A DNA stretch of 64,000 nt from IMG/VR virus record IMGVR_UViG_3300033407_000006, positions 10,877 to 74,876 of that record. One strand, written 5' to 3'. The notes under the pieces were generated by a model that was not told the origin of the DNA, ran no database searches, and was given only the letters and a program-made list of their open reading frames with translations. The position numbers were made by a program, and so were the translations under genes. Shown piece after piece: positions 9,481 to 46,176 of this stretch (the first letter of the stretch is position 1; each line of letters opens with the position of its first letter). The DNA is from a virus. Its lineage: Duplodnaviria > Caudoviricetes.

Positions 9481-9500
9481 TTATTCCCTCCTTTTTCACC

Positions 9501-9532
9501 ACCATAGCACCGGGAATTTATCAACCCATTCA
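9501..9532 (-). promoter_or_regulatory. Repeated promoter/operator element, copy 1 (TGAATGGGTTGATAAATTC-N5-TGn-TATGGT)
   Basis: 19-bp motif repeated at 13904-13922 and 19309-19327 with constant spacing to an extended -10. Confidence 0.65.
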
Positions 9533-9826
9533 TTATTCCGACAGCGCCTTAATTCTTTCCCGCACAAACGTCAGCGGCGGCAGGATTATCTTCACGCCCG
9601 CCTCCATGGCCTCACGGGGGTCGTCCAGCCCTGCGGCAATTCGCACCGCCCAGGCCATGTCTTCGGTGCCGTAGTGGCGGTAGGCAATCAGCTCGGGGCG
9701 CAACACCTCATCGGGCTGGATTTCTCGTTCGCGCCAGCCCACGGCCCCGGCCCGGATCTCCCGGTAAAGAGTCGCCCGCTTCAGGTCGTCGGCAATGTTG
9801 TGGGGGGAGAGTCTCGACAGGGCCAT
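9533..9826 (-). CDS. Baseplate wedge protein (P1 gp26 / T4 gp53-like)
   Basis: RPELIAYRHYGTEDMAWAV...LDDP...G..I.LP, LysM-like pattern. Confidence 0.65.
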   Translation of the reverse strand: MALSRLSPHNIADDLKRATLYREIRAGAVGWREREIQPDEVLRPELIAYRHYGTEDMAWAVRIAAGLDDPREAMEAGVKIILPPLTFVRERIKALSE

Positions 9827-10719: not shown

Positions 10720-10739
10720 GGCGGGCTAAACTATGTTAT
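10720..10739 (+). repeat. Array head site GGCGGGCTAAACTATGTTAT (attI-like, copy 1)
   Basis: Identical 20-mer at 26005-26024, ends in a GTT core. Confidence 0.65.
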
Positions 10740-10942
10740 AAGTCGCTCGTCAATTTGAAGTTGAACGGCCTCTCCGGGGTGTAGTGCTCGCGGATTGAGC
10801 GGTCACGCTCTCGCAGTTGCTCAACGATCCAGGCCTCTGCGAACTTTTCCAGCGTCGGGTAAAAGGTTCGCGTTTTCGTGCTGTCGTTGCCGGTCACGAT
10901 ATAGCCGTTATCAATGCGCTCTATCTGTACGTCAATTTCCAT
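10736..10942 (-). CDS. Cassette ORF, hypothetical
   Basis: Stop TAA inside the GTTATAA core, GGAGG RBS. Confidence 0.7.
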   Translation of the reverse strand: MEIDVQIERIDNGYIVTGNDSTKTRTFYPTLEKFAEAWIVEQLRERDRSIREHYTPERPFNFKLTSDL

Positions 10943-10963
10943 CAGTACCTCCGTTTAGGCGAC

Positions 10964-11066
10964 TCATAACCCGTCGCTGAAGACGACGCGCAATAGCTGT
11001 CGGGTTCGCGTTCGATTCAGTGGTGCGCCGTCGTCGGCGCGGCGCGTCTTACCTTTGTCGTTATGC
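10964..11066 (+). repeat. attC site A1 (103 bp)
   Basis: TCATAAC-N5-GCTGAAGA...TCTTACC-N6-GTTATGC. Confidence 0.8.
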
Positions 11067-11279
11067 GCCAGCATCACCATCCATCAGTCCACAACCAATG
11101 GCGCAATCTTCACAGTGAGGGTTTCCATCACCATCCACAATAGAGTCCTCTTCGCAGTGGCCTGTCGGCTCCTCACATTTGCTGCAAAGCTGCAAAGTTC
11201 CAGGGTAGTTATCTGCGTTCCAATGGGCGTGCTCCTCTTGCGTCATTGCATGTCTGCGTCCGCCTGGCCATGTGTTCAT
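11061..11279 (-). CDS. Cassette ORF, Cys/His-rich
   Basis: CSKC...HC...HCEDC, stop TAA within R' of A1. Confidence 0.65.
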   Translation of the reverse strand: MNTWPGGRRHAMTQEEHAHWNADNYPGTLQLCSKCEEPTGHCEEDSIVDGDGNPHCEDCAIGCGLMDGDAGA

Positions 11280-11315
11280 GGTGTTTCTCCTGTCCGCAAG
11301 ATGTTTAGCTAATTG

Positions 11316-11654
11316 TTATGCGTACAAACATTCACGCCCAGCCATCTCTGCGGAAATCCAGTCTCCATCCATCGCATTTCCATTGATGGCCTTCTCCAGT
11401 TGCCGCAGCGTGTCCCGCAAGGATTTCTCTAAATCGTTTATCCGGTCTTGCTTTATGCTCACAGTACCCTTCAGCTTCACGTTCTCGTCCCGCAGGTCTT
11501 TCAGTTCTGCGGCTATCGTGTCCAAAAAACCAACTGGATCTGCACTTGCCAACAGATTACCGCCGCTTATCATGTCGGCGAGTCTTCCAAAAGCCGCGTC
11601 AATTCTCGCCAGTTTCCCTTTCATGCTTCCCATAGTTTCCTCCAAAATTCGCAT
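11316..11654 (-). CDS. Cassette ORF, coiled-coil hypothetical
   Basis: ATG inside R'' of A2, TAA inside orphan R' at 11315. Confidence 0.65.
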   Translation of the reverse strand: MRILEETMGSMKGKLARIDAAFGRLADMISGGNLLASADPVGFLDTIAAELKDLRDENVKLKGTVSIKQDRINDLEKSLRDTLRQLEKAINGNAMDGDWISAEMAGRECLYA

Positions 11655-11716
11655 AACCAGCGGGTCAACTCGGATTGCGCAAACTGCCGCGCAACCGGTT
11701 ACCCTTGTCGTTATAA
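11651..11716 (+). repeat. attC site A2 (66 bp)
   Basis: GCATAAC-N5-GGTCAACT...GGTTACC-N6-GTTATAA, extra C in L''. Confidence 0.85.
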
Positions 11717-11902
11717 ATCTTTGTGCGAAAGAGTGGCGGCACGTACGTACTCGCTTGGAGTAATTCCTGCCACCACAGCTTTGCGCTCTACCTCATCCCA
11801 CTCTTCAGCCGTCCAGCGGGTTTGCTTAACAACGTCCCGCACAGGTTTGCGGCTGGTCGATCCTTGCGGCCTGCCCCCGCCTCGCCATCCTCCTTTAGGC
11901 AT
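11711..11902 (-). CDS. Ribbon-helix-helix (MobC-like) DNA-binding protein
   Basis: GGWRGGGRP...RWTAEEW..VERKA..AGITPSEYVR. Confidence 0.7.
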   Translation of the reverse strand: MPKGGWRGGGRPQGSTSRKPVRDVVKQTRWTAEEWDEVERKAVVAGITPSEYVRAATLSHKDL

Positions 11903-12128
11903 GGTCGCCCTCCACAAATGAGCATGGTGCATAATCAAGAGGATCTCCACCGAGCATCCCCGGCTTTATGTTCCATCCACAGCGCCAGGGGTCAATCATA
12001 CTTGCCAGCTCCGAGCGCAGTGCGTTCTTTTGCAGGACAAAGCCGGTGAATCGCTGCCGGTATCTGCACCCCGCCGCACATTCGGGCGGGGTGCCGGTAT
12101 TCGTTGGGTCTGCCGGTAGTGGCCTCAT
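11895..12128 (-). CDS. Hypothetical protein
   Basis: ATGA-coupled to the upstream ORF within the promoter cassette. Confidence 0.5.
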   Translation of the reverse strand: MRPLPADPTNTGTPPECAAGCRYRQRFTGFVLQKNALRSELASMIDPWRCGWNIKPGMLGGDPLDYAPCSFVEGDHA

Positions 12129-12313
12129 ACCCACCCCCCAGTTTCTGGGTCATATGCTTGGCGGCCACAAAAAACCGGATCAGGGCTGTGCGAAACGCGC
12201 ACCAACGAAGCAGCACCAACAAGACGGGCAGACTCGAAGCGCAGGTACGCGAGGCCAGCAAGCGGGGTGGAATCAGCGAGGGTGCCATTGATGTGAATTT
12301 CATAAGTTTCCAT
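12125..12313 (-). CDS. Hypothetical protein
   Basis: AGGAG RBS downstream of a sigma70 promoter. Confidence 0.6.
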   Translation of the reverse strand: METYEIHINGTLADSTPLAGLAYLRFESARLVGAASLVRVSHSPDPVFCGRQAYDPETGGWV

Positions 12314-12344
12314 GTTTGTTCTCCTATGTCGTTAAGTTGATTTA

Positions 12345-12373
12345 AATATATTTCAACTTTGTTTTCTTGTCAA
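12345..12373 (-). promoter_or_regulatory. Cassette-internal sigma70 promoter TTGACA-N17-TATATT with overlapping inverted repeat
   Basis: AAGTTGA (12334-12340) / TCAACTT (12352-12358) flank the -10. Confidence 0.75.
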
Positions 12374-12425
12374 TACAAAAAAACAACTAAACTATTAATT
12401 TGCCACGGAAGAGACGCCCAAAGAT

Positions 12426-12483
12426 TTATAACAAGTCAATCAACCGGATTCGCTACGCTCTCCGGTTATTTCAGTCGTTAGAT
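12426..12483 (+). repeat. attC site A3 (58 bp)
   Basis: TTATAAC-N5-AATCAACC-GGATTCGCTACGCTCTCC-GGTTATT-N6-GTTAGAT, textbook architecture. Confidence 0.92.
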
Positions 12484-12500
12484 TCTAAATCTGCGCAAAA

Positions 12501-13295
12501 TCAGACAAAGCACATGCCGCTCGAACAGTATCCGCCCGCATCGAATAGGGTCGGTTCTGCGGTAAAGTCCACCTGGTCCAGCGGTGTGCATGATCGGTGC
12601 AGCCAGGCGCACGGGTCGAACGCCTGCATTTCCCTCTCGAACGCCACCGCTTGAGCAAATTCGTCCGGTGCGTTCTCCTTCAGGTCTTTCCATTCGTCGT
12701 CGGCTTGGTTCGGGCACATCCAGCAACGCGACCTGGGCGGCTTCGGCCACCCCATCTTCTCGACTTCGCGGATTCCGTGGTGCCTCTTCATCGGCACATC
12801 GTGAATCATCGGAAACCGGATAAGCCCTTTTTCCCATTCCGGCCCCGCCATCATTCGCAAAGCCCGGCGCGTTTCGTCCATGCTGAATCCGATCCACATT
12901 TTCACCTTTGAGCGGGTCAAACCGAATGTCTTGCTCAAAAAACTCTGAATGACTCGGTTTTTCCATTTGCTTGAACAAAACCCCGGCATCTTGCCGACGT
13001 TCCCGGTCTCGTCTGTCCATGTTGGCAAAATCATGGTCTTCCCGCTCGGGTCAAGCCAGTTCGGATCTTTTGCATAATGACCGCCCCACTCATCGCAGCA
13101 CACACGATGAATTTCTACCCCTACCCCTGCCAGTGCAGGCAACGTAACGGCGTTAAGGTATTGCCACGTTGTCCCGCATTCCCGACCAGTGTCGGCAATC
13201 ACCGCAAGATCCGGCTTCGGCAGCTTTCCTTGAATTATCAGCGAAGCGATACAGTTGCTTTGCGTCCCGCCTCCGCTGCTAAAAACCTCAACCAT
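12501..13295 (-). CDS. Cassette ORF: PP-loop adenine-nucleotide alpha-hydrolase (PAPS reductase/DndC-like) family protein
   Basis: SSGGGTQS PP-loop, ADTGRE, CSSKWK, RSRCWMCP, terminal CSSGMCFV. Confidence 0.7.
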   Translation of the reverse strand: MVEVFSSGGGTQSNCIASLIIQGKLPKPDLAVIADTGRECGTTWQYLNAVTLPALAGVGVEIHRVCCDEWGGHYAKDPNWLDPSGKTMILPTWTDETGNVGKMPGFCSSKWKNRVIQSFLSKTFGLTRSKVKMWIGFSMDETRRALRMMAGPEWEKGLIRFPMIHDVPMKRHHGIREVEKMGWPKPPRSRCWMCPNQADDEWKDLKENAPDEFAQAVAFEREMQAFDPCAWLHRSCTPLDQVDFTAEPTLFDAGGYCSSGMCFV

Positions 13296-13334
13296 TTAAC
13301 CCCCTATCGGGCTGCGCCCGAGCGCAGATTTAGA

Positions 13335-13392
13335 ACCTAACCCAGCGGTGAAGCGGATTCGCTCCGCTCTCCGCTTACCTCAATCGTTACCT
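13335..13392 (+). repeat. attC site A4 (58 bp)
   Basis: ACCTAAC-N5-GGTGAAGC-GGATTCGCTCCGCTCTCC-GCTTACC-N6-GTTACCT. Confidence 0.88.
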
Positions 13393-13867: not shown

Positions 13868-13890
13868 GGCTCCCTCCCTTCTATGCCTTC

Positions 13891-13922
13891 AGTATCGCAA
13901 AAGGAATTTATCAACCCATTCA
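13891..13922 (-). promoter_or_regulatory. Repeated promoter/operator element, copy 2
   Basis: TGAATGGGTTGATAAATTC-CTTTTGC-GATACT. Confidence 0.65.
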
Positions 13923-13926
13923 CTAT

Positions 13927-16407
13927 TCAATCGTTCCCTGCCAAAATCTTTTTGGCCCGCTCCAGCGCCTCGTTTCTCTCCCGGTCGCTGGCCTCTTCAA
14001 CCGGCGTGTAATCGACCAAGTAGAAGAAGCAAACGGTATCGAAAAGGTCCGGGGATTTGATGCCCTGCGAGGCCATTTGATCCTTGGGAAGGATGGAGTA
14101 GCGGCCCTTTTCGTCCATCTTGTAAGGGATTTTGCTGCCCTGCTCCACGATCTTCTTGTTGCGGGGGATATGAATGCGCTGCTGCCTTAAGGCCTCCCTG
14201 GCCTGATACGAGGCGTAGGCCCGCAGGTTCTTGTATCGGCGCTTGTCGGTCTCCGAAAACGGCGGAAGGCCCCAATGGATTGTTTCGCACGGAACGCCCA
14301 GCTCTTCGAGCGTCAGGATGACGGTGCGACCCGGCCCGTCGCCGTCGATTGCAACGGTGATGTTGGGGAAGTCTTGAACCCGCTGATAGATCTCTCGGGC
14401 AAAGGCCAATTCGTCCTTGTCCAGGTATTCGACCGTCTCCACGATATCGACCTTGCGATCCGGGCCGTAGCCGCTCACTTTGGCGATGGACCAAACGGAC
14501 GAATCCCGGAACTTCCCTTCAGCAACGTCTGCGGTCAGAATCCAGCCCCAGGCCTCTTTGTGCTCAATCTGATTGGTCTGCGCATCCTCAAGCCATGATT
14601 TCGGAATGAGAAAGCCGCTCATGTTGTCGGGTAGCCGCCCCAGAACCTTGATCTGGTACTCAGGGCTGTGGTGCCCGCCGTACTCAATCAGCTTCATTTC
14701 GATGAATTCGCGGGTGACAAGCGGACTTTCTTCGGAGTTGAGATTCAACGTCTTGTAAAGACTGGAGTTTTGCCCCCACGCGTCGGCAAAGTGACCGTTT
14801 GCCCGCGTCGGCTGCGAGACCATGATATATCGGTTTCCGGCTTGGGTCAGGGCGCCGCGCAAAACGCCGTGAATGACATCATCCACGCCCGAGGCCTCAT
14901 CCACCACGCACAGGTAATTTTCGTTGTGCTGGCCCGCCAGTGATTCCGGCTTGGACTTCGAGGCGGTACGGGGGATGACGTACCACGAATCTTTCCAGTG
15001 CTTGTTGAAGTACCGCTTTGTTTCCTTGACGAAGTGGCCCCGCTGGTAAGGGTTGATAGCCTCCACGTCGGCGATGACCTCATCCATGTACTTCCATACG
15101 CCCGTGCGGCACTGGTCGATGCTGTTTGCGGTCAATAGGGCGTTGCTCAAGGGGTAAACGCGAAGATGCCAATCGAAGAGCCAAGCGAGCAGAAAGGTCT
15201 TGCCGGTATTATGAAGAACGGTGAAGTCTCCACCAAGAAATTTGCTGTTTCCGTCGAGGATGAAGCCGTAATAGTCACCTTCGCCTAGTGGAGCGCAGCT
15301 TCTTATCCCGAAATTAAGGTTGGGCCGGTTCTTGTTTCTATCTATCGGTTTCCTTCTTTCTACTCGGACAGGTATCTTGTCGATATTTCTGCCTATGTTG
15401 ATCCGCCAATAATCTCCCACCGCTCCGGTGTTGCAGCATTTTTTTCGAGTCTTATTAACTGTAGCATGACAACCAATCGATTTAGCCAGCCACACAATAT
15501 CTCTTGCGAATCTTTCGCTCTTTTGAACAACGTCGAATGCTGTGCCCGCGCTTGCTAAAAACCCATCAGTATCAATAATGCCAGCCAAAAGCTCTAGCCT
15601 GTCTTGGTATGGCGCAAGCAAGTATTTTTTAGGTATGTGCAGTTCATCTGTTAAACCATGTGCTCGAAGAGTTTCGATGAATGGATTGGCCCTCCCTTTT
15701 CCTATCCCAATGTGCCACATCCTGGCTTTGCCGCTCGCCCCCCAATAGGTAAGCCTGTAGCCCTTAGAAACTGCATACCGGCCCCATGCCTCGCTTACTT
15801 CTCTATCTGGTGTCGTTATCGTTGGCGTGTGAATATGTCCATCTCCTAGCCAGAGTCCGAGTATATATGCCGGGATCGGTAGCTCTTCGGGCTCCCAGCC
15901 GAAATCATTTACACTCGCCCTGTAGACAGCATGGCAACGCTTTCTATCGGCTCCCCATTGCAGCCAATCCCTAACCGTCACCTCAGTTTTCTCTCCAGAC
16001 TCTCTGCGGCCTTTTGAGTTTGTTGCGACAAGGCAAAGGATATGACTTTCGTTGAAGACGTGGCTAGACCCGTCGTTGTAGGTGAAGCGATACAGCGCCT
16101 CCCGGCCACGTTTTAGCGCCAAGACGTTTCGCGGCGTACCGTCATCGCCCATAAGGATGTCGCCCACATTCACGCTCTCAACCGGCTTTATCTCGCCGCT
16201 ATGCAGCATGATTTCGGTTCCAAGGCCGAAGCAGCCGTGCCCGGACGCTACCGCAACCTGGGCCCCGTGCTCCTGCGCCAAGCGAATGAAATCCTCCTGC
16301 TGCCAGGACATCCGCTGTCGACAATGGTGATCGACGTAATCCATGAGGTTGTTACGGTAGCGGGCGCAGAAATCGATGTAATCGGGATTGGAAAAGAGGG
16401 TGCTCAT
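13927..16407 (-). CDS. terL: Terminase large subunit (P1 PacB-like) with intein
   Basis: SGHG|TGKT Walker A split by the intein, VVDEASGV Walker B, TADVA nuclease motif. True start ATG 16407 is coupled to the upstream stop. About 484 aa after splicing. Confidence 0.93.
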   Translation of the reverse strand: MSTLFSNPDYIDFCARYRNNLMDYVDHHCRQRMSWQQEDFIRLAQEHGAQVAVASGHGCFGLGTEIMLHSGEIKPVESVNVGDILMGDDGTPRNVLALKRGREALYRFTYNDGSSHVFNESHILCLVATNSKGRRESGEKTEVTVRDWLQWGADRKRCHAVYRASVNDFGWEPEELPIPAYILGLWLGDGHIHTPTITTPDREVSEAWGRYAVSKGYRLTYWGASGKARMWHIGIGKGRANPFIETLRAHGLTDELHIPKKYLLAPYQDRLELLAGIIDTDGFLASAGTAFDVVQKSERFARDIVWLAKSIGCHATVNKTRKKCCNTGAVGDYWRINIGRNIDKIPVRVERRKPIDRNKNRPNLNFGIRSCAPLGEGDYYGFILDGNSKFLGGDFTVLHNTGKTFLLAWLFDWHLRVYPLSNALLTANSIDQCRTGVWKYMDEVIADVEAINPYQRGHFVKETKRYFNKHWKDSWYVIPRTASKSKPESLAGQHNENYLCVVDEASGVDDVIHGVLRGALTQAGNRYIMVSQPTRANGHFADAWGQNSSLYKTLNLNSEESPLVTREFIEMKLIEYGGHHSPEYQIKVLGRLPDNMSGFLIPKSWLEDAQTNQIEHKEAWGWILTADVAEGKFRDSSVWSIAKVSGYGPDRKVDIVETVEYLDKDELAFAREIYQRVQDFPNITVAIDGDGPGRTVILTLEELGVPCETIHWGLPPFSETDKRRYKNLRAYASYQAREALRQQRIHIPRNKKIVEQGSKIPYKMDEKGRYSILPKDQMASQGIKSPDLFDTVCFFYLVDYTPVEEASDRERNEALERAKKILAGND
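15208..16233 (-). mobile_element. Intein with LAGLIDADG homing endonuclease (342 aa)
   Basis: Starts CFGLGTEI, ends VLHN followed by T. LLAGIIDTDG motif. Lower GC than flanks. Confidence 0.93.
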
Positions 16408-16691
16408 AGATGCAGCCAAGGCTTTGCGGCGATATCGGGGATCAACTCCAGAAGCTCCCCTTCGGTTGCGATTGAAGCCTCGAACGATTCTCTTCCGGCA
16501 TGGACGGCAACGCCCCGGCCCCCTTGCCGGTGATGTGCCGGGCAAAGGGGGATTCTCGGGGCGTTGCCGCGCTTTGAGCCACCGCGCCGGATATGGTGAA
16601 TTTCAGCCGGTGACGTGCCGTAGCCGAGGCGGTGACAGGCCATGCAGCCGAACGAGGCGAGTTGCGAATCGGTGAAGTCTGTGTCGGTCAT
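16404..16691 (-). CDS. Ref-like HNH nuclease
   Basis: GCMAC...EIHH...IPLCPAHH...VHAG, like the C-terminal domain of P1 Ref. Confidence 0.75.
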   Translation of the reverse strand: MTDTDFTDSQLASFGCMACHRLGYGTSPAEIHHIRRGGSKRGNAPRIPLCPAHHRQGGRGVAVHAGRESFEASIATEGELLELIPDIAAKPWLHL

Positions 16692-19273: not shown

Positions 19274-19295
19274 GTTCCCTCCTGTCGGTCCAAAC

Positions 19296-19327
19296 ACCTT
19301 AACATTGTGAATTTATCAACCCACTCA
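19296..19327 (-). promoter_or_regulatory. Repeated promoter/operator element, copy 3
   Basis: TGAGTGGGTTGATAAATTC-ACAATGT-TAAGGT. Confidence 0.65.
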
Positions 19328-19361
19328 CTAAACGATGTCAGGAGAGAAAAAACAAAAAAAA

Positions 19362-23259: not shown

Positions 23260-24063
23260 TTACTCTGTGAGGGCTGAAGATAATTTTTTTTGCAAATCGG
23301 ACTTGAGCTTCTCTTTCCGGTCTCGGATTTGAGCTATTTCCTGCCTAAGCTCTTCGTCCTTCATCCGCCGCTGCTGTTCATCACGAATTCTGCCCTTCTC
23401 TTCCAGGTCTTCGCGCAGCTTGCGAAGTTTCGCCAGAAAGACCGGCTTCAGGTTTTCAGTGGGTTGTTCAGCCCCGGCCACCATGGAAATGAGAGCCCGG
23501 CCTTCCGCAGTCGTATCCTGTTGCAGCAGGTTGGAGACAGCGGCCCTGGGCAAAATCCCTTGTTCAACCGCCTCCCGCGCCACGGCTGCGCGGTGTTCCG
23601 GGTCAAAGCCTTCGGAGAGATACCAGCGAGCCAGCCCGCCTCGTTCTTTTGCGCGAGCAACCGCCCGGTCGTATGCGTCCCGAAAGCAAACCCTCGCCCC
23701 AACCTCATCCCCGCTCTGAAAAATCGCCCGGCATGCGCTCCAGGCTTCCAAAATCTCCGGGCAGATGACGGCACTCTTGCTCTCGTCCGACAAGCCGAGC
23801 GCCTTTGCCCAGGCCTCGTTGCCGGACAAAAAGCCGTCAGGGTTTTCGGCTTCAATCGCTTCGATGAAATCGGCGGGGAGGGGGAAAGTCCGAAACTTGT
23901 GAGTTCGGCTCACCCTCTCTATCGCCCGAAAAACTTTGTCCTTGCCGTAGGGGGCCAGAATGTCCTCATAGGCCCGGATTTTGGTTGCAGAGACATCAAC
24001 GCTGATTAACTCCGACAAGGCAAAGAGTCTGCACCCTATCGCCTTCCTGGTTTCCTCGTTCAT
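23260..24063 (-). CDS. Replication helicase loader/accessory protein (lambda P-position)
   Basis: Follows the initiator, FPLPADF, EAWAKAL, ARVCFRDAYDR. Confidence 0.6.
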   Translation of the reverse strand: MNEETRKAIGCRLFALSELISVDVSATKIRAYEDILAPYGKDKVFRAIERVSRTHKFRTFPLPADFIEAIEAENPDGFLSGNEAWAKALGLSDESKSAVICPEILEAWSACRAIFQSGDEVGARVCFRDAYDRAVARAKERGGLARWYLSEGFDPEHRAAVAREAVEQGILPRAAVSNLLQQDTTAEGRALISMVAGAEQPTENLKPVFLAKLRKLREDLEEKGRIRDEQQRRMKDEELRQEIAQIRDRKEKLKSDLQKKLSSALTE

Positions 24064-24998
24064 CGGCCCTCCATGTATCGCCGGAACTCTTCCCGGTTCC
24101 GATCCGTCGTTGTGGCGGCGCGGCCTGCGTTGTTTTTAGCGCCACCACGGTCCTGCTCCCTTGAAAGCCAATTGACAAGGAACGCCTTGATCCCGCTTTT
24201 GGTTTTCCGACGCTTGGGGTTCGCGTCCGACCATGCCGCTGCCTTGCGAAGCTCCTGCAACACATCGACCGCCGGGAAAAGCTGCGTCCACTGGTCAATG
24301 TCCGACTGCGGGACGTGGTGCGCCTCGCCCCCTACCAGTGGGATCTGAATCACTGATCCGCCCTCGGGGGGCAAGACTTCGATGGTCGGCTCTGAGTTTT
24401 GCTCAGAGCAAGAATCTTCGTAAGAAGATTCCTCTCCTTTTGTTTTTAAAGGAGAAGGAGAAGGAGAAGGAGAAGGAGAAGGGGTTCGGTCGAACGTCCG
24501 AACGCTGCGTTCGGGGTTGTTCGATTTTCGTTGCGTAACATCTTGATTTTTACGGCTTTCTGTTTTTGCTTCGTTCGGGCTGTTTTTGGTGGTCGTTCGG
24601 GAGCCGTTCGGGAGAGGTTGCGCGGTCCCTTTTTGTGCCTTTCGAGCCGCCGCACTTGCCTTCCCGGCCTTCCTTGCAGCCGCCTTTCTTTGCTCACCGT
24701 TTACCGCCCAAGGCTGGTGTTCTTCCCAATCTTTCGGGGCGTACCCGTTGGGTGTTTCGATCAGGAACTTTGCTTCGAGCATGCCCCTTACGAACACGCC
24801 GGGCTCCCCTTCCCAGCCAGCAACGTCTTCAATGTCTTCGTTCGACCACCCGTTCAACACTCCGTTCGGGCGTTGTTCGGCAACTGTGGTCCAGAAGCAG
24901 ATCAGGTTTTCCATGGCGGTGGGGCCCACCATGCGTCGCAATCGCTTGAATTTCCTATGTCTCGGCAATTTCACGTCTATGCGAATGTCAGTGTTCAT
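24060..24998 (-). CDS. Phage replication initiator
   Basis: HRKFKRL...LICFW N-terminal wHTH, PS linker, C-terminal FPAVDVLQELRK..AW..ANP.RRKT..G...F..NWL. Confidence 0.8.
   Translation of the reverse strand: MNTDIRIDVKLPRHRKFKRLRRMVGPTAMENLICFWTTVAEQRPNGVLNGWSNEDIEDVAGWEGEPGVFVRGMLEAKFLIETPNGYAPKDWEEHQPWAVNGEQRKAAARKAGKASAAARKAQKGTAQPLPNGSRTTTKNSPNEAKTESRKNQDVTQRKSNNPERSVRTFDRTPSPSPSPSPSPLKTKGEESSYEDSCSEQNSEPTIEVLPPEGGSVIQIPLVGGEAHHVPQSDIDQWTQLFPAVDVLQELRKAAAWSDANPKRRKTKSGIKAFLVNWLSREQDRGGAKNNAGRAATTTDRNREEFRRYMEGR
24450..24482. repeat. (AGGAGA)5 tandem repeat encoding a PSPSPS linker
   Basis: Direct inspection. Confidence 0.9.
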
Positions 24999-26004: not shown

Positions 26005-26024
26005 GGCGGGCTAAACTATGTTAT
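26005..26024 (+). repeat. Array head site GGCGGGCTAAACTATGTTAT (attI-like, copy 2)
   Basis: Identical to 10720-10739. Confidence 0.65.
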
Positions 26025-26257
26025 GCCTTAAAGCCGTACGATTTACGGCCCCTCCCAAAAGGTCCGGCATTTATCCTCTCCTCCCCTGCTCGCGCTGTCC
26101 ACTTCGCCTTCCAAATTTTCTTCCCAGGCTCGGTATCTTGTGTTCCCTCAATGACATCCCCACCCCAAGCTTTTTCGATAGCCTCGGCTTCGGTGGCTGC
26201 CTCAACGCAACACATTGTTTGGGTGCTTTCGTAGCCTTCCACGTAAAAAATAGGCAT
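26021..26257 (-). CDS. Cassette ORF, hypothetical
   Basis: ATG in R'' of B1, TAA in the head-site core. Confidence 0.65.
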   Translation of the reverse strand: MPIFYVEGYESTQTMCCVEAATEAEAIEKAWGGDVIEGTQDTEPGKKIWKAKWTARAGEERINAGPFGRGRKSYGFKA

Positions 26258-26311
26258 AACCAATCCTTTCAGCGGACTCGCTCCGCTCGCGGCTGAAGTC
26301 AGTTGTTAGGC
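26254..26311 (+). repeat. attC site B1 (58 bp)
   Basis: GCATAAC-N5-CTTTCAGC-GGACTCGCTCCGCTCGCG-GCTGAAG-N6-GTTAGGC. Confidence 0.88.
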
Positions 26312-26634
26312 AGCCCCAACAGTTGCCGAGCCGCCGCAATGTCGGCAGCGGTCACGCCGGTCGGCACGCTCTTGTACTCAAGGTCGCGCTTCAAGCCGTC
26401 CCATGCTTTGTGTAGCGCCATCACGCCTTCATGGTGTTCTTGGCTCAGGTAGCAGCAGCCAGGCGCCGAGAAACCCCCTCCGTCAGCCACCAGCGTTTCG
26501 AGATCAATCCGCTCGCGGTTGTCGAGTTGAGCCCACTTGCGGCCGACCTTCGTCACTGTCACTTCTCGTGGCAGCGCGTGCCGCTGGCTTTGCGGCACCC
26601 ACCAAAGTATTTGCCCTTCCGTCAGTTTTTCCAT
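26299..26634 (-). CDS. Cassette ORF, hypothetical (beta-barrel-like, VTVTKVGRKW)
   Basis: 111 aa between B1 and B2. Confidence 0.7.
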   Translation of the reverse strand: MEKLTEGQILWWVPQSQRHALPREVTVTKVGRKWAQLDNRERIDLETLVADGGGFSAPGCCYLSQEHHEGVMALHKAWDGLKRDLEYKSVPTGVTAADIAAARQLLGLPNN

Positions 26635-26645
26635 TCTCCGATCCC

Positions 26646-26737
26646 TTCTAACTTATCGTTGCAGGCGACCGCCGAACAGCCGCCTATAGCTTCCTCTTGC
26701 GCTCCTGCGCGGCGTCGCCTGAACTCAGACGTTATCT
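26646..26737 (+). repeat. attC site B2 (92 bp)
   Basis: TTCTAAC-N5-GTTGCAGG...CCTGAAC-N6-GTTATCT. Confidence 0.85.
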
Positions 26738-26935
26738 GCTCAGTGCCTCACCGATAGCGGTTACCAAATTACTTTGATCTTGGCTTTTGCACTCAATGTG
26801 TGGCAGCGCATCGGTCAGCATTTTTCTAAGGGTTTCGTTTTCTTCCCTCAACTCATCCGAGCAGGCCCGCGACATCCGCAGGTGCATTTCAATGTCGGTG
26901 ATTTTGTCTACTAACTCTCTTTCTCGTTTGTCCAC
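26732..26935 (-). CDS. Cassette ORF, coiled-coil hypothetical
   Basis: GGAGG RBS with GTG start, stop in R' of B2. Confidence 0.6.
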   Translation of the reverse strand: MDKRERELVDKITDIEMHLRMSRACSDELREENETLRKMLTDALPHIECKSQDQSNLVTAIGEALSR

Positions 26936-26948
26936 TTTTGACCTCCGC

Positions 26949-27013
26949 AGATAACCAATCGTTGCAAGCGGACTCGGCAAACTGCGCCGAGCCCTTGACC
27001 TCAGTCGTTATGC
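26949..27013 (+). repeat. attC site B3 (65 bp)
   Basis: AGATAAC-N5-GTTGCAAG...CTTGACC-N6-GTTATGC. Confidence 0.85.
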
Positions 27014-27276
27014 AACTCGTCACCGCCCCACGGCGCTCCCGACTCCCGCAACGCCAACTTGAGCGGCAGAAGCGTGCATACATCACCGTCGGCCAGGTGG
27101 CCGTTTGCGTCGAGCGTCTGGCAAATTGCGGCGCGCAGCCTTTCAACTTCCGCCGAAAGAATCTCGGCAATATCCACACTGCCGTAACCGCTGCCGGTCA
27201 TGTCGTCATCTTCGTCGGTCGGCCCGGCTATCTCGTAGCAAAGGCGCCTCGCCAAATCTATGCTGCCTCGTTTCAT
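27001..27276 (-). CDS. Cassette ORF, hypothetical
   Basis: GGAGG RBS, ENGHLADGDVCTL-type motif (ANGHLADGDVCTL). Confidence 0.65.
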   Translation of the reverse strand: MKRGSIDLARRLCYEIAGPTDEDDDMTGSGYGSVDIAEILSAEVERLRAAICQTLDANGHLADGDVCTLLPLKLALRESGAPWGGDELHND

Positions 27277-27291
27277 TTCTCAACCTCCGTT

Positions 27292-27359
27292 GCATAACCC
27301 GGCAGTCCACCTGACCTGCCGCATAAAGCCGCGTCAGTCAGGTGACTTTTGCGTTAGGG
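27292..27359 (+). repeat. attC site B4 (68 bp)
   Basis: GCATAAC-N5-AGTCCACC...GGTGACT-N5-GTTAGGG, extra C in L''. Confidence 0.85.
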
Positions 27360-27548
27360 TGCTTCGGGGCGGCTCTGTTTTGCGTACAGCTCCAGCCACG
27401 CAAAAGCCAAACCCGGCGGGCGTCTCCCGCTCGGCCCGTCATCTTCCCAACTCTGCCAAGTGCGGTACGGTGTCCCCGTCAACCTGGCCGCTTCTGCCAT
27501 AGAGAGACCCGACTTCTGCCGGGTCTCTCTCAGTTCCTTGGCAGTCAC
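27354..27548 (-). CDS. Cassette ORF, XRE-family HTH protein
   Basis: ELRETRQKSGLSMAEAARLTGTPYRTWQSWE. Confidence 0.8.
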   Translation of the reverse strand: MTAKELRETRQKSGLSMAEAARLTGTPYRTWQSWEDDGPSGRRPPGLAFAWLELYAKQSRPEAP

Positions 27549-27781
27549 TGGTTGCCATCCGGACGGACGATTTCTGCCCCTTCCTCGACAAGACGGGAGC
27601 AAAGGTCAATACACTCCTGACTTCCTACTCCATAGCCAATTTTTCCGCGCAGTTCGTCGGGGACAGGACAGGCCGCGACCCCTTCGTCACTCATTGGATC
27701 GCCGTCGTAACTTTTGACCTGTTCCGCATTCGCCGGCCAGCAGAATTGTCCGTCATTCATTACTACGTATTTGCTTTTCAT
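27545..27781 (-). CDS. Cassette ORF, hypothetical, coupled to the HTH gene
   Basis: AAGGAG RBS downstream of a promoter. Confidence 0.65.
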   Translation of the reverse strand: MKSKYVVMNDGQFCWPANAEQVKSYDGDPMSDEGVAACPVPDELRGKIGYGVGSQECIDLCSRLVEEGAEIVRPDGNQ

Positions 27782-27830
27782 GGCTGTACTCCTTCTGGTT
27801 TGGGTTATTTGTTCCGCTTTCTTGATTCTA

Positions 27831-27880
27831 ATTATATGCACATTGTGACTGATTGCAAGTAAAATAATTCACTTTGTGCA
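27831..27880 (-). promoter_or_regulatory. Cassette-internal promoter TTGCAA-N16-TATAAT with operator-like inverted repeat
   Basis: TGCACATTGTGA (27837) / TCACTTTGTGCA (ending 27880). Confidence 0.7.
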
Positions 27881-27905
27881 TTTTTATTTGAGCGGCGCAA
27901 AATCA

Positions 27906-27974
27906 CCCTAACCAGTCGGTCAATCGGACCGTCGCGAAAGTGCCGCGCCGATCCGCTTACCTTTATCGTTAGTT
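27906..27974 (+). repeat. attC site B5 (69 bp)
   Basis: CCCTAAC-N5-GGTCAATC...GCTTACC-N6-GTTAGTT. Confidence 0.85.
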
Positions 27975-28220
27975 TGCTTGTGGCACTTCCAGCGGCCCGT
28001 ACCACTTCCCACCGATCTTATTGACACGCTCGCGGTAGCCGGTAAGCGGGCGGCACCCAACAAAACCACACGCGGCTTTAATGACTTGGTAAATTTCTAC
28101 GCTGTTCGCCCTTCCTCCGCCGTCATCGTTCCAATAAAAACCTTCGGCGGTCGGTTCCTCTTTCGACCAGCGCAAACTAACACCAGTTTCGAGCGGACGG
28201 TTTTCACTTTCCGTTTCCAT
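27969..28220 (-). CDS. Cassette ORF, hypothetical (WSKEEPTAEGFYW...WYGPLE.P)
   Basis: Starts inside the B6 stem, stops in R' of B5. Confidence 0.65.
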   Translation of the reverse strand: METESENRPLETGVSLRWSKEEPTAEGFYWNDDGGGRANSVEIYQVIKAACGFVGCRPLTGYRERVNKIGGKWYGPLEVPQAN

Positions 28221-28260
28221 GGGTTGCGGCCTCCTCCGCCGCTCAAACTAAACGTTAGGC
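28175..28260 (+). repeat. attC site B6 (86 bp)
   Basis: AACTAAC-N5-TTTCGAGC...GCTCAAA-N6-GTTAGGC, extra C in L''. Confidence 0.9.
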
Positions 28261-28325
28261 CAGATATTCAGCTTCTCAAGGGTTTCACGATCTTTGAGCC
28301 TCTCGTAAATCACTCCCACCTCCTC

Positions 28326-46013: not shown

Positions 46014-46078
46014 GGCGATTGAAAACATTGCGCTTTCCCGGCTACGGCCCCGGTTTCTCTTCTTGTATCTTTTTTGTG

Positions 46079-46107
46079 TTGACAGATATAGGATGTGAGA
46101 CTAGAGT
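46079..46107 (+). promoter_or_regulatory. Sigma70-type promoter TTGACA-N17-TAGAGT
   Basis: Twin of 683-711. Confidence 0.7.
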
Positions 46108-46176
46108 TTCACCATGAAAGGCGGCGCGGGGCTGCCGGGGCGGACAAGCCGACTCAGGGAGAGGGAGGAAATAGTC

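Follow-up and report, generated by a model that had tools for sequence, protein, structure and literature searches.

Can a phage without a recombinase of its own keep an integron-type cassette array? Integrons are seen as bacterial gene-capture devices whose genes are read from an integron promoter, and phages have recently been added as occasional carriers. The question is raised by array B, which occupies positions 26005-28260 of a 64,000-nt stretch (the window) of a tailed-phage record in IMG/VR (IMGVR_UViG_3300033407_000006). Here an enzyme-less phage platform carries a putative attI-like head, and every supported gene is antisense to its attC site. Our analysis indicates that array B is probably a true integron-type cassette array, that is, a group of clustered attC sites without an integron integrase (CALIN), in a tailed phage of ~75 kb, and that it is probably served by an integron integrase of the host.

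Identity of the six attC sites

A first-pass annotation, made from the sequence of the window, had placed six attC sites at 26254-26311 (B1), 26646-26737 (B2), 26949-27013 (B3), 27292-27359 (B4), 27906-27974 (B5) and 28175-28260 (B6), all with the top strand on +, and these coordinates are borne out to the base. Read on +, each site consists of nnnTAAC, a 5-nt spacer, the L″ arm, a variable centre, L′, a spacer of 5-7 nt and GTTAnnn. Alignment of the sites resolves the L″ arm into three pairs, one extra base and then at least seven pairs, and the 3′ spacer measures 6 nt in four array B sites, 5 nt in B4 and 7 nt in B3. TAAC and GTTA never vary, either among these six or, more widely, among the ten attC sites of the window; the outer three core positions vary and pair with the end of the neighbouring cassette, and the first R″ base is sometimes not a purine. 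The sites are 58, 92, 65, 68, 69 and 86 nt long (B1 to B6). Their central regions differ in length and sequence, as the annotation had observed, and no cassette is similar to another. Across the ten window sites the L helix is 89% paired, with compensatory changes at 6 of 10 pairs, as against 23-44% pairing in slid controls.

A covariance model, R1, was built from the ten window sites (B1-B6 and four sites of a second array, array A). Run over the window, R1 returns only those ten, all on +, and the other 11 kb of the genome give no match; the attC of aadA1 on plasmid R100 also scores 46.5 bits with this model. Searching a model's own training sites is circular, and a second model, R2, was therefore built from external sites only, namely 124 attC sites that R1 had found in other viral contigs, together with plasmid R100. 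Over the 64 kb, R2 recovers exactly the six array B sites and the four at 10964-13392, all on +, with scores of 37-59 bits (37.6-55.1 bits in array B), and its controls reach at most 11 bits on the reverse strand and at most 10 bits elsewhere in the window. These results confirm the six sites as attC in the strict sense. A model made from array A, aadA1 and TJE1 sites was dropped for its inconsistent L′ register, and R2 was used instead.

Orientation of the sites

As an attC site is a near-palindrome, strand calls were calibrated on R100 aadA1, on phage TJE1 and on the IntI-bearing contig L110. On the R100 site R1 scores 46.5 bits on the aadA1 sense strand versus 12.4 on the other. In phage TJE1 it calls three sites (22.6-32.3 bits), all on the strand that carries the genes and each placed at a gene's 3′ end, in agreement with the published sense orientation. 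In contig L110 a true integron integrase (468 bits) lies divergently beside R1 sites in the classical sense geometry. The three calibrations agree, and the assignment of the top strand to + was correct. Taking - as the top strand would restore the normal order, in which genes precede attC; this is ruled out by the asymmetry of spacers and bulge together with the model calibration, and also by the ends of the array and by a cassette shared between contigs L120 and L057 (see below). The array begins at its left with a hairpin-less head and finishes at its right with a full attC, an arrangement that suits an integron only if + is the top strand.

Head site and cassette boundaries

The left end of array B, at 26005-26024 (+), has an L-box-like CTAAAC in its left half, followed after a spacer of 3 nt by G|TTA, and the crossover would fall between 26020 and 26021. 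The core of this head has no hairpin partner, and its layout of AAAC, 3 nt and GTTA is that of the attI1 simple site of R100. The same 20-mer stands at 10720-10739, at the start of array A, in DNA that is otherwise dissimilar. Judged from its layout, 26005-26024 is a putative attI-like site, at which cassettes would be inserted.

With the crossover set between G and TT of each GTTA core, array B divides into six cassettes on +. Cassette c1 (26021-26305, 285 bp) ends in B1 (R1 56.9, R2 44.5 bits), c2 (26306-26731, 426 bp) in B2 (R2 47.4 bits), c3 (26732-27007, 276 bp) in B3 (R2 37.6 bits), c4 (27008-27353, 346 bp) in B4 (R2 55.1 bits), c5 (27354-27968, 615 bp) in B5 and c6 (27969-28254, 286 bp) in B6 (R2 38.2 bits). 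Five of the six open with a stretch of 9-10 nt that repeats their own R″ region as an exact reverse complement. The cognate runs from c1 to c6 are 9, 5, 9, 10, 9 and 10 nt, compared with at most 7 nt in non-cognate pairs, and the two cores of a single site match over 4-5 bases only. Cognate ends of 9-10 nt are what circular cassettes would leave on inserting by exchange inside the core. The view that the cassettes have independent origins and did not arise by tandem duplication, put forward in the first-pass annotation, is upheld by the unrelated cassettes, by the cognate ends in five of six and by relatives of c5 that have the same ends. With six co-oriented sites within 2.0 kb of a replicon that has no integrase, array B is classed as a CALIN.

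Genes lie antisense to their sites

All supported genes of array B are on -, and in their sense direction the order is attC, ribosome site, gene and stop, the reverse of bacterial cassettes. The earlier annotation mentioned neither the antisense genes nor the fact that CALINs of phages have been published. The c1 gene (26257-26021, -) encodes 78 aa with no family match; it starts at an ATG inside R″ and stops at the TTA of the head core. The c2 gene (26634-26299, -) encodes a Phage_ProQ_C_like protein of 111 aa (PF24203, E 1.1e-15, residues 3-106); its reading frame crosses the junction with the last two codons and ends at a TGA in the B1 spacer. The c3 gene (26935-26732, -; 67 aa) has a GTG start after GGAGG and stops at the TTA of the core, and the c4 gene (27276-27001, -) encodes an acidic protein of 91 aa, with a GGAGG ribosome site and a TGA stop in the B3 spacer. 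In c6 (28220-27969, -; 83 aa) the ATG and GGAGG lie inside the attC centre and the stop is again the TTA of the core; no word-sharing relatives of its protein were found. Cassette c5 carries two genes and is treated separately below.

Two features recur through these genes. Strong ribosome sites of the GGAG type lie before the starts of c2, c3, c4 and c6, and four of the six cassettes (c1, c3, c5 and c6) take their stop codon from the crossover core, whose TTA is read on the opposite strand. The strand of the gene is backed in most cassettes by a family match or by a ribosome-binding site, and eight + strand open reading frames (ORFs) gave no match to Pfam. Because the supported genes are antisense to the top strand, transcription must come in from the distal end. 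No Pc promoter reads into the cassettes of array B in the sense direction, and no terminator-like T runs follow its stems. Just outside the array, at 28263-28325 (-), is a candidate ORF of 23 codons with a GAGGAGG ribosome site, which runs through the R′ core of the last attC and has its stop inside the spacer of that site.

Array A (10720-13392, +) has the same 20-mer at its head, genes on -, and attC sites at 10964-11066, 11651-11716, 12426-12483 and 13335-13392 (+). It also has a hairpin-less GTTA junction near 11315, and the complementarity of its ends reaches 14 perfect bases. Its cargo comprises a NikA-like gene (2.7e-8), a coiled-coil gene and a 3′-phosphoadenosine-5′-phosphosulfate (PAPS)-reductase-like gene (phrog_424, 3.9e-27), of which the NikA-like and PAPS-reductase-like genes are on -. 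The nameable cargo as a whole leans towards the handling of nucleic acids and towards counter-defence: a ProQ_C-like protein, helix-turn-helix (HTH) proteins with variable small acidic partners, a PAPS reductase and, in other arrays, methylases.

At its default filters R1 found no attC near 27 PAPS-reductase loci or two ProQ_C-like loci, a negative that is partly a failure of sensitivity. With the filters of R2 off, and with a structural scan, the closest PAPS-reductase homologue (61%, L013/L169) proved to have an antisense attC 34 nt upstream of its start; none was found near the other 26 PAPS-reductase loci. L013/L169 is IMGVR_UViG_3300044673_000155, a 57-kb viral contig with an antisense PAPS-reductase cassette, a cassette of the c5 HTH family and additional attC sites. 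This contig and the phage that bears array B appear to draw on a common cassette pool, and the contig is not among the relatives retrieved by searches with the SbcC-like or portal proteins of that phage.

Recurrence of cassette c5

Cassette c5 is the only one with relatives to compare. On - it has a sigma-70-like promoter-like site (27858-27831, 10 of 12 positions matching), a first gene of 78 aa (27781-27545) with no match to a toxin family, and a gene for an XRE-type HTH protein of 64 aa (27548-27354; HTH_31 at 5.8e-5), the two genes being coupled by a GTGA overlap. The HTH protein has 33 homologues of 59-83 aa. The annotation had proposed looking for the cassettes in other contexts with the same ends, and the c5 family is found in just this state, with the same ends and an antisense attC, in at least eight other viral contigs.

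The relative in L105/L164 shows what is kept and what is exchanged. Identity in its HTH gene is 76%, beginning with the first bases of the cassette, and its promoter and the R″/L″ part of its attC are 86% identical; the first gene has been replaced and the neighbours differ. Seven further contigs share the geometry of the family. When HTH homologues were compared at 12 viral loci, attC matches were present at eight, and all 18 matches are antisense to the gene. Each of the eight attC-bearing loci has an attC ~360-735 nt upstream of its HTH gene, and three have another immediately after the stop codon; in seven of nine other loci the HTH gene stops at the TAA of a TAAC box. Across the family the upstream gene is swapped for small ORFs that are unrelated and mostly acidic. 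L105 also has an attC that is 94% identical to the window site at 12429-12480, which indicates that the two phages draw on related sites.

Sedentary chromosomal integrons contain reversed, promoter-bearing two-gene cassettes (toxin-antitoxin) as exceptions. Cassette c5 resembles these in being antisense to attC, in having its own promoter-like site and in carrying two coupled small genes, the second of XRE-type HTH. It departs from them in that its first gene has no toxin match, and the array departs from chromosomal integrons in that reversal is no exception, with all six cassettes of array B reversed. The succession of a promoter-like site, a small variable gene and a conserved small HTH gene in c5 is reminiscent of anti-defence operons with anti-CRISPR-associated (Aca) regulators. 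No match to an anti-defence family was found; going by this layout, c5 looks more like a putative anti-defence gene with an Aca-like regulator.

Reversed arrays in other viral contigs

A gapped pattern from three window sites was used to scan IMG/VR and retrieved at least 80 loci; the counts that follow refer to the matches listed. In these loci R1 identifies at least 186 attC sites, mostly in co-oriented arrays and typically with cognate ends of 8-13 nt. The strand of the genes was surveyed by taking the longest ORF on either strand in 120 cassettes of 37 non-redundant loci. By this measure 44 cassettes are antisense, 18 sense and 58 undecided, and antisense cassettes are in the majority in 20 loci and sense cassettes in six. 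The survey was seeded with the site type of array B itself, so that the 44:18 ratio is biased, and about half of the cassettes are uncallable. The antisense call is backed by Pfam in seven cassettes of six contigs (two N6/N4 methylases, two C5 methylases, a D12 methylase, a DHH protein and an HTH protein), and eight sense-strand ORFs of such cassettes gave no family match; one sense call, in L061, was confirmed. The antisense arrays occur beside terminase and portal genes, a Mu-type transposase, a primase and replication genes. These counts suggest that antisense is the commoner layout on viral contigs with this type of attC.

A precise exchange of a reversed cassette is observed between two other phage arrays. 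An antisense cassette of 838 bp is 95% identical between L120 (2750-3587) and L057 (6790-7627), in flanks that are unrelated. The homology runs from the TT after the G of the preceding site to the G of the cassette's own site, and the shared unit consists of an antisense ORF (247 aa, no Pfam match) and the attC on its start side. These limits show that an attC travels with the gene whose start it adjoins.

Related C5-methylase cassettes were also noted in L100, L086, L064 and L049, at 72-75% nucleotide identity; they are antisense in L064 and L049, the two that were scanned with Pfam. This suggests a circulating family of anti-restriction cassettes. The head sites of the arrays likewise seem to fall into families. 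In L071, L055, L086, L120, L114, L097, L081 and L065 a hairpin of 6-13 bp is followed by a CTAC/CTAA-like box ~7-10 nt before the first GTT; a second type of head is common to L064 and L108, and a third to L074 and L053.

The recombinase and competing explanations

A search of all six frames of the 74,876-bp record for an integron integrase, another tyrosine recombinase or a serine recombinase (TIGR02249, PF00589, PF00239) found none, and the adjacent intI of a complete integron is lacking in this phage. Other array-bearing viral records are similar: among the matches listed, 19 of 25 have no tyrosine recombinase, including eight of the nine at ≥90% completeness, and none of ten antisense-array records has an IntI. 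L114 does have a tyrosine recombinase ~1 kb from the head of its array; it is a generic enzyme without the IntI signature. IntI1 recombines the bottom strands of phage attC sites, those of TJE1 included, into attI1 (Qi et al. 2023, Front Microbiol, PMC9892861). Since neither the array B phage nor most similar phages have a recombinase, and since IntI1 accepts phage attC sites, a host integrase is the simplest model for the enzyme.

In this model, cassettes would be inserted as units by strand exchange between G and TT of the GTTA core. A host integron integrase would act in trans on the folded bottom strand, so that an array that is still active could gain, lose and exchange cassettes, either during infection or, if the phage is a phage-plasmid, during carriage. 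New cassettes would be received at the head site, and exchange between attC sites would delete or reorder those already present. Expression would come from phage read-through from the right, to which c5 may add its own promoter. The bottom strand is here the coding, non-template strand, and would also be the lagging-strand template if the genes follow the fork; going by published integron biology, both conditions would favour folding. A platform oriented in this way would express only reversed cassettes, and the phage pool would in this manner be kept apart from the bacterial one.

Several observations weigh against this interpretation. Searched for in viral, genome and metagenome collections, the 17/18-mer of the head turned up in coding sequence by chance only, never beside an intI, and no host integron could be linked to the head site in the same collections. 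The c2 and c4 genes run two codons beyond the crossover and are not perfectly modular, and most homologues of the PAPS reductase and of the ProQ_C-like protein in other phages are not cassette-borne. The folding of the sites, which the first-pass annotation had set as a check, is in line with attC only in part. A full attC hairpin is the minimum-energy fold of the bottom strand in three of six sites and is not in the remaining three, and the folds are only modestly better than those of shuffled sequences (z -1.0 to -3.4). The expected extrahelical base is likewise a canonical G in just three of six sites (B4-B6); it is C in two and A in one.

Under a rival explanation, a dedicated recombinase of the phage world, either a small Xer-like tyrosine type in related phages or an unrecognised enzyme, operates a phage counterpart of the integron. 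We regard this as unlikely. It would suit the frequency of reversed polarity in viral contigs (44 antisense versus 18 sense cassettes and 20 versus six loci, again among the matches listed), the phage-type cargo and the many genes of this phage that have no assigned function. Against it stand the failure to find a tyrosine or serine recombinase in any frame of the record, or a tyrosine recombinase in 19 of 25 array-bearing records among the matches listed, and the generic character of the L114 enzyme. The sites are, moreover, close to classical attC, as the R1 score of the aadA1 site shows, and in L110 a true IntI stands beside a sense array.

It is decidedly unlikely that array B is the inactive remnant of a bacterial integron or CALIN, acquired a single time through illegitimate recombination and now ordinary phage DNA. 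Two separate arrays with an identical head site are difficult to reconcile with a single acquisition of this kind, and so is the recurrence of the c5 family in several other phages with different neighbours. The genes are all co-oriented with phage transcription, with almost no spacer DNA and with phage-type cargo (ProQ_C-like, PAPS reductase), the cognate ends of 9-10 nt are intact and the ten sites are full-length. What speaks for a relic is the lack of an integrase, the lack of attC sites in the distant relatives found through the SbcC-like and portal proteins, and the lack of a direct sign of turnover in this phage.

That the hairpins are kept mainly for a role in RNA or transcription (message stability, punctuation, ribosome sites or stops), recombination being historical, is very improbable, for although each hairpin lies just upstream of a gene in the sense direction, with R″ or the attC centre providing the start or ribosome site in c1 and c6 and the core the stop in four of six, such a role accounts neither for the extra base and the asymmetry of the 5/6-nt spacers nor for the invariance of the TAAC/GTTA cores, the complementarity of cognate ends and the breaks of homology exactly at G|TT between arrays, and the stems have no terminator-like T runs.

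Comparison with known arrays and a possible phage cassette pool

The interpretation of array B as a cassette array served by a host integrase places it next to the CALINs of phages, of which 17, all with two or more sites, were reported from a survey of 10,705 phage genomes (Qi et al. 2023, PMC9892861). Array B is like these in being a cluster of attC sites without intI in a phage genome. The published arrays are typically sense-oriented (TJE1, PH101), with some divergent sites, and their cargo often includes DNA methyltransferases (PMC9892861). TJE1, the best studied of them, has sense genes, whereas the array B phage has ten sites in two arrays with identical attI-like heads and antisense genes. 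The Shewanella prophage M16-3 carries a complete integron as well as a CALIN, and the same attI stands at the head of both (Qi et al. 2023, PMC9892861). The array B phage is similar in having two arrays in one genome with the same attI-type head on each; it differs in that M16-3 has its own integrase and a known Shewanella attI, whereas here the integrase is lacking and the head is unmatched in the collections searched.

Class 1 arrays, as exemplified by aadA1 of R100/In2, have the same attC architecture, spacer lengths, position of the extra base and G|TT crossover, and in both the cassette has its own attC at its top-strand 3′ end and the cognate R′ at its start. Array B is unlike class 1 arrays in having neither intI nor Pc, in having bottom-strand genes with attC before the gene, and in residing on a phage platform. 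The insertion of cassettes at attG sites offers a further point of reference: by this pathway, described together with single attC sites that lack an integron integrase (SALINs), IntI can place cassettes outside att sites, at the GWT sites of any replicon and in either orientation (Loot et al., 10.1101/2022.09.11.507474). This route could account for the seeding of arrays in phages and not for the conserved head or for the reversal of genes relative to attC; insertion at attG keeps the orientation of a gene relative to its own attC, and reversed cassettes are therefore left unexplained by it. In the literature searched we found no description of reversed polarity as a feature of phage arrays, or of integrase-less arrays with a repeated attI-like head.

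A broader reading, which we hold tentatively and at somewhat less than even confidence, is that phages own a reversed cassette pool, with attC before the gene and the coding strand as the recombinogenic strand. Such a pool would reside on integrase-less platforms with attI-like heads and would be traded by way of host integrases. Its cargo would be mostly counter-defence, consisting of DNA methylases, anti-defence/HTH modules and DNA-modification enzymes, and array B would be a well-preserved member of an undescribed class. If this is so, reversed cassettes would be silent once captured by a bacterial integron, and in the phage they would fold more readily during transcription or lagging-strand synthesis. 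A distinct reversed pool of anti-restriction and anti-defence genes would amount to a new route of gene flow from phage to phage, would make any gene in such a cassette a candidate counter-defence gene, and would provide a new test case for the unsolved joining of genes to attC sites. A practical caution also follows for annotation, in that integron-finding pipelines that assume sense-strand genes may miscall reversed cassettes.

Genomic setting and further features of the phage

The IMG/VR record that holds the window is 74,876 bp long, and its ends overlap by 127 bp (1-127 = 74750-74876, exact). The record appears to be complete, and the overlap suggests an assembler k-mer artefact of a circular or complete genome, perhaps with no true packaging repeat. 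The gene set is that of a tailed phage, with portal, tail proteins, small and large terminase, single-stranded DNA-binding protein (SSB), an SbcCD-like nuclease and a replication initiator. The portal is distantly P1-like (~35% identity to P1-like phages), and in family searches many genes had no assigned function. Array B lies within the early/replication region, inside a long leftward transcription unit, with the replication initiator (24063-24998) as its left neighbour and the SbcCD-like genes (from 28896) as its right neighbour. A blastn comparison of the array DNA with isolated phages gave no match. Relatives were retrieved through the SbcC-like protein (two proviruses, 33-37% identity) and through the portal (one contig, 52%), and no attC sites were found in these two proviruses or in the contig.

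Other features of the genome lie outside the arrays. Inspected by eye in translation, the ORF of the large terminase (13927-16545, -; 872 aa) appears to contain an intein-like insert that begins with Cys, is homing-endonuclease-like in its middle and ends in HN. A repeat of ~54 nt with a conserved 19-nt core occurs three times (9485-9538, 13875-13928 and 19280-19333), each copy just upstream, in the - sense, of a gene block, and these repeats may be phage promoter or regulator sites. A direct repeat of 58 nt, at 672-729 and 46068-46125 and 86% identical between its copies, has a TTGACA-type box followed by an ATG and may be a repeated promoter/leader.

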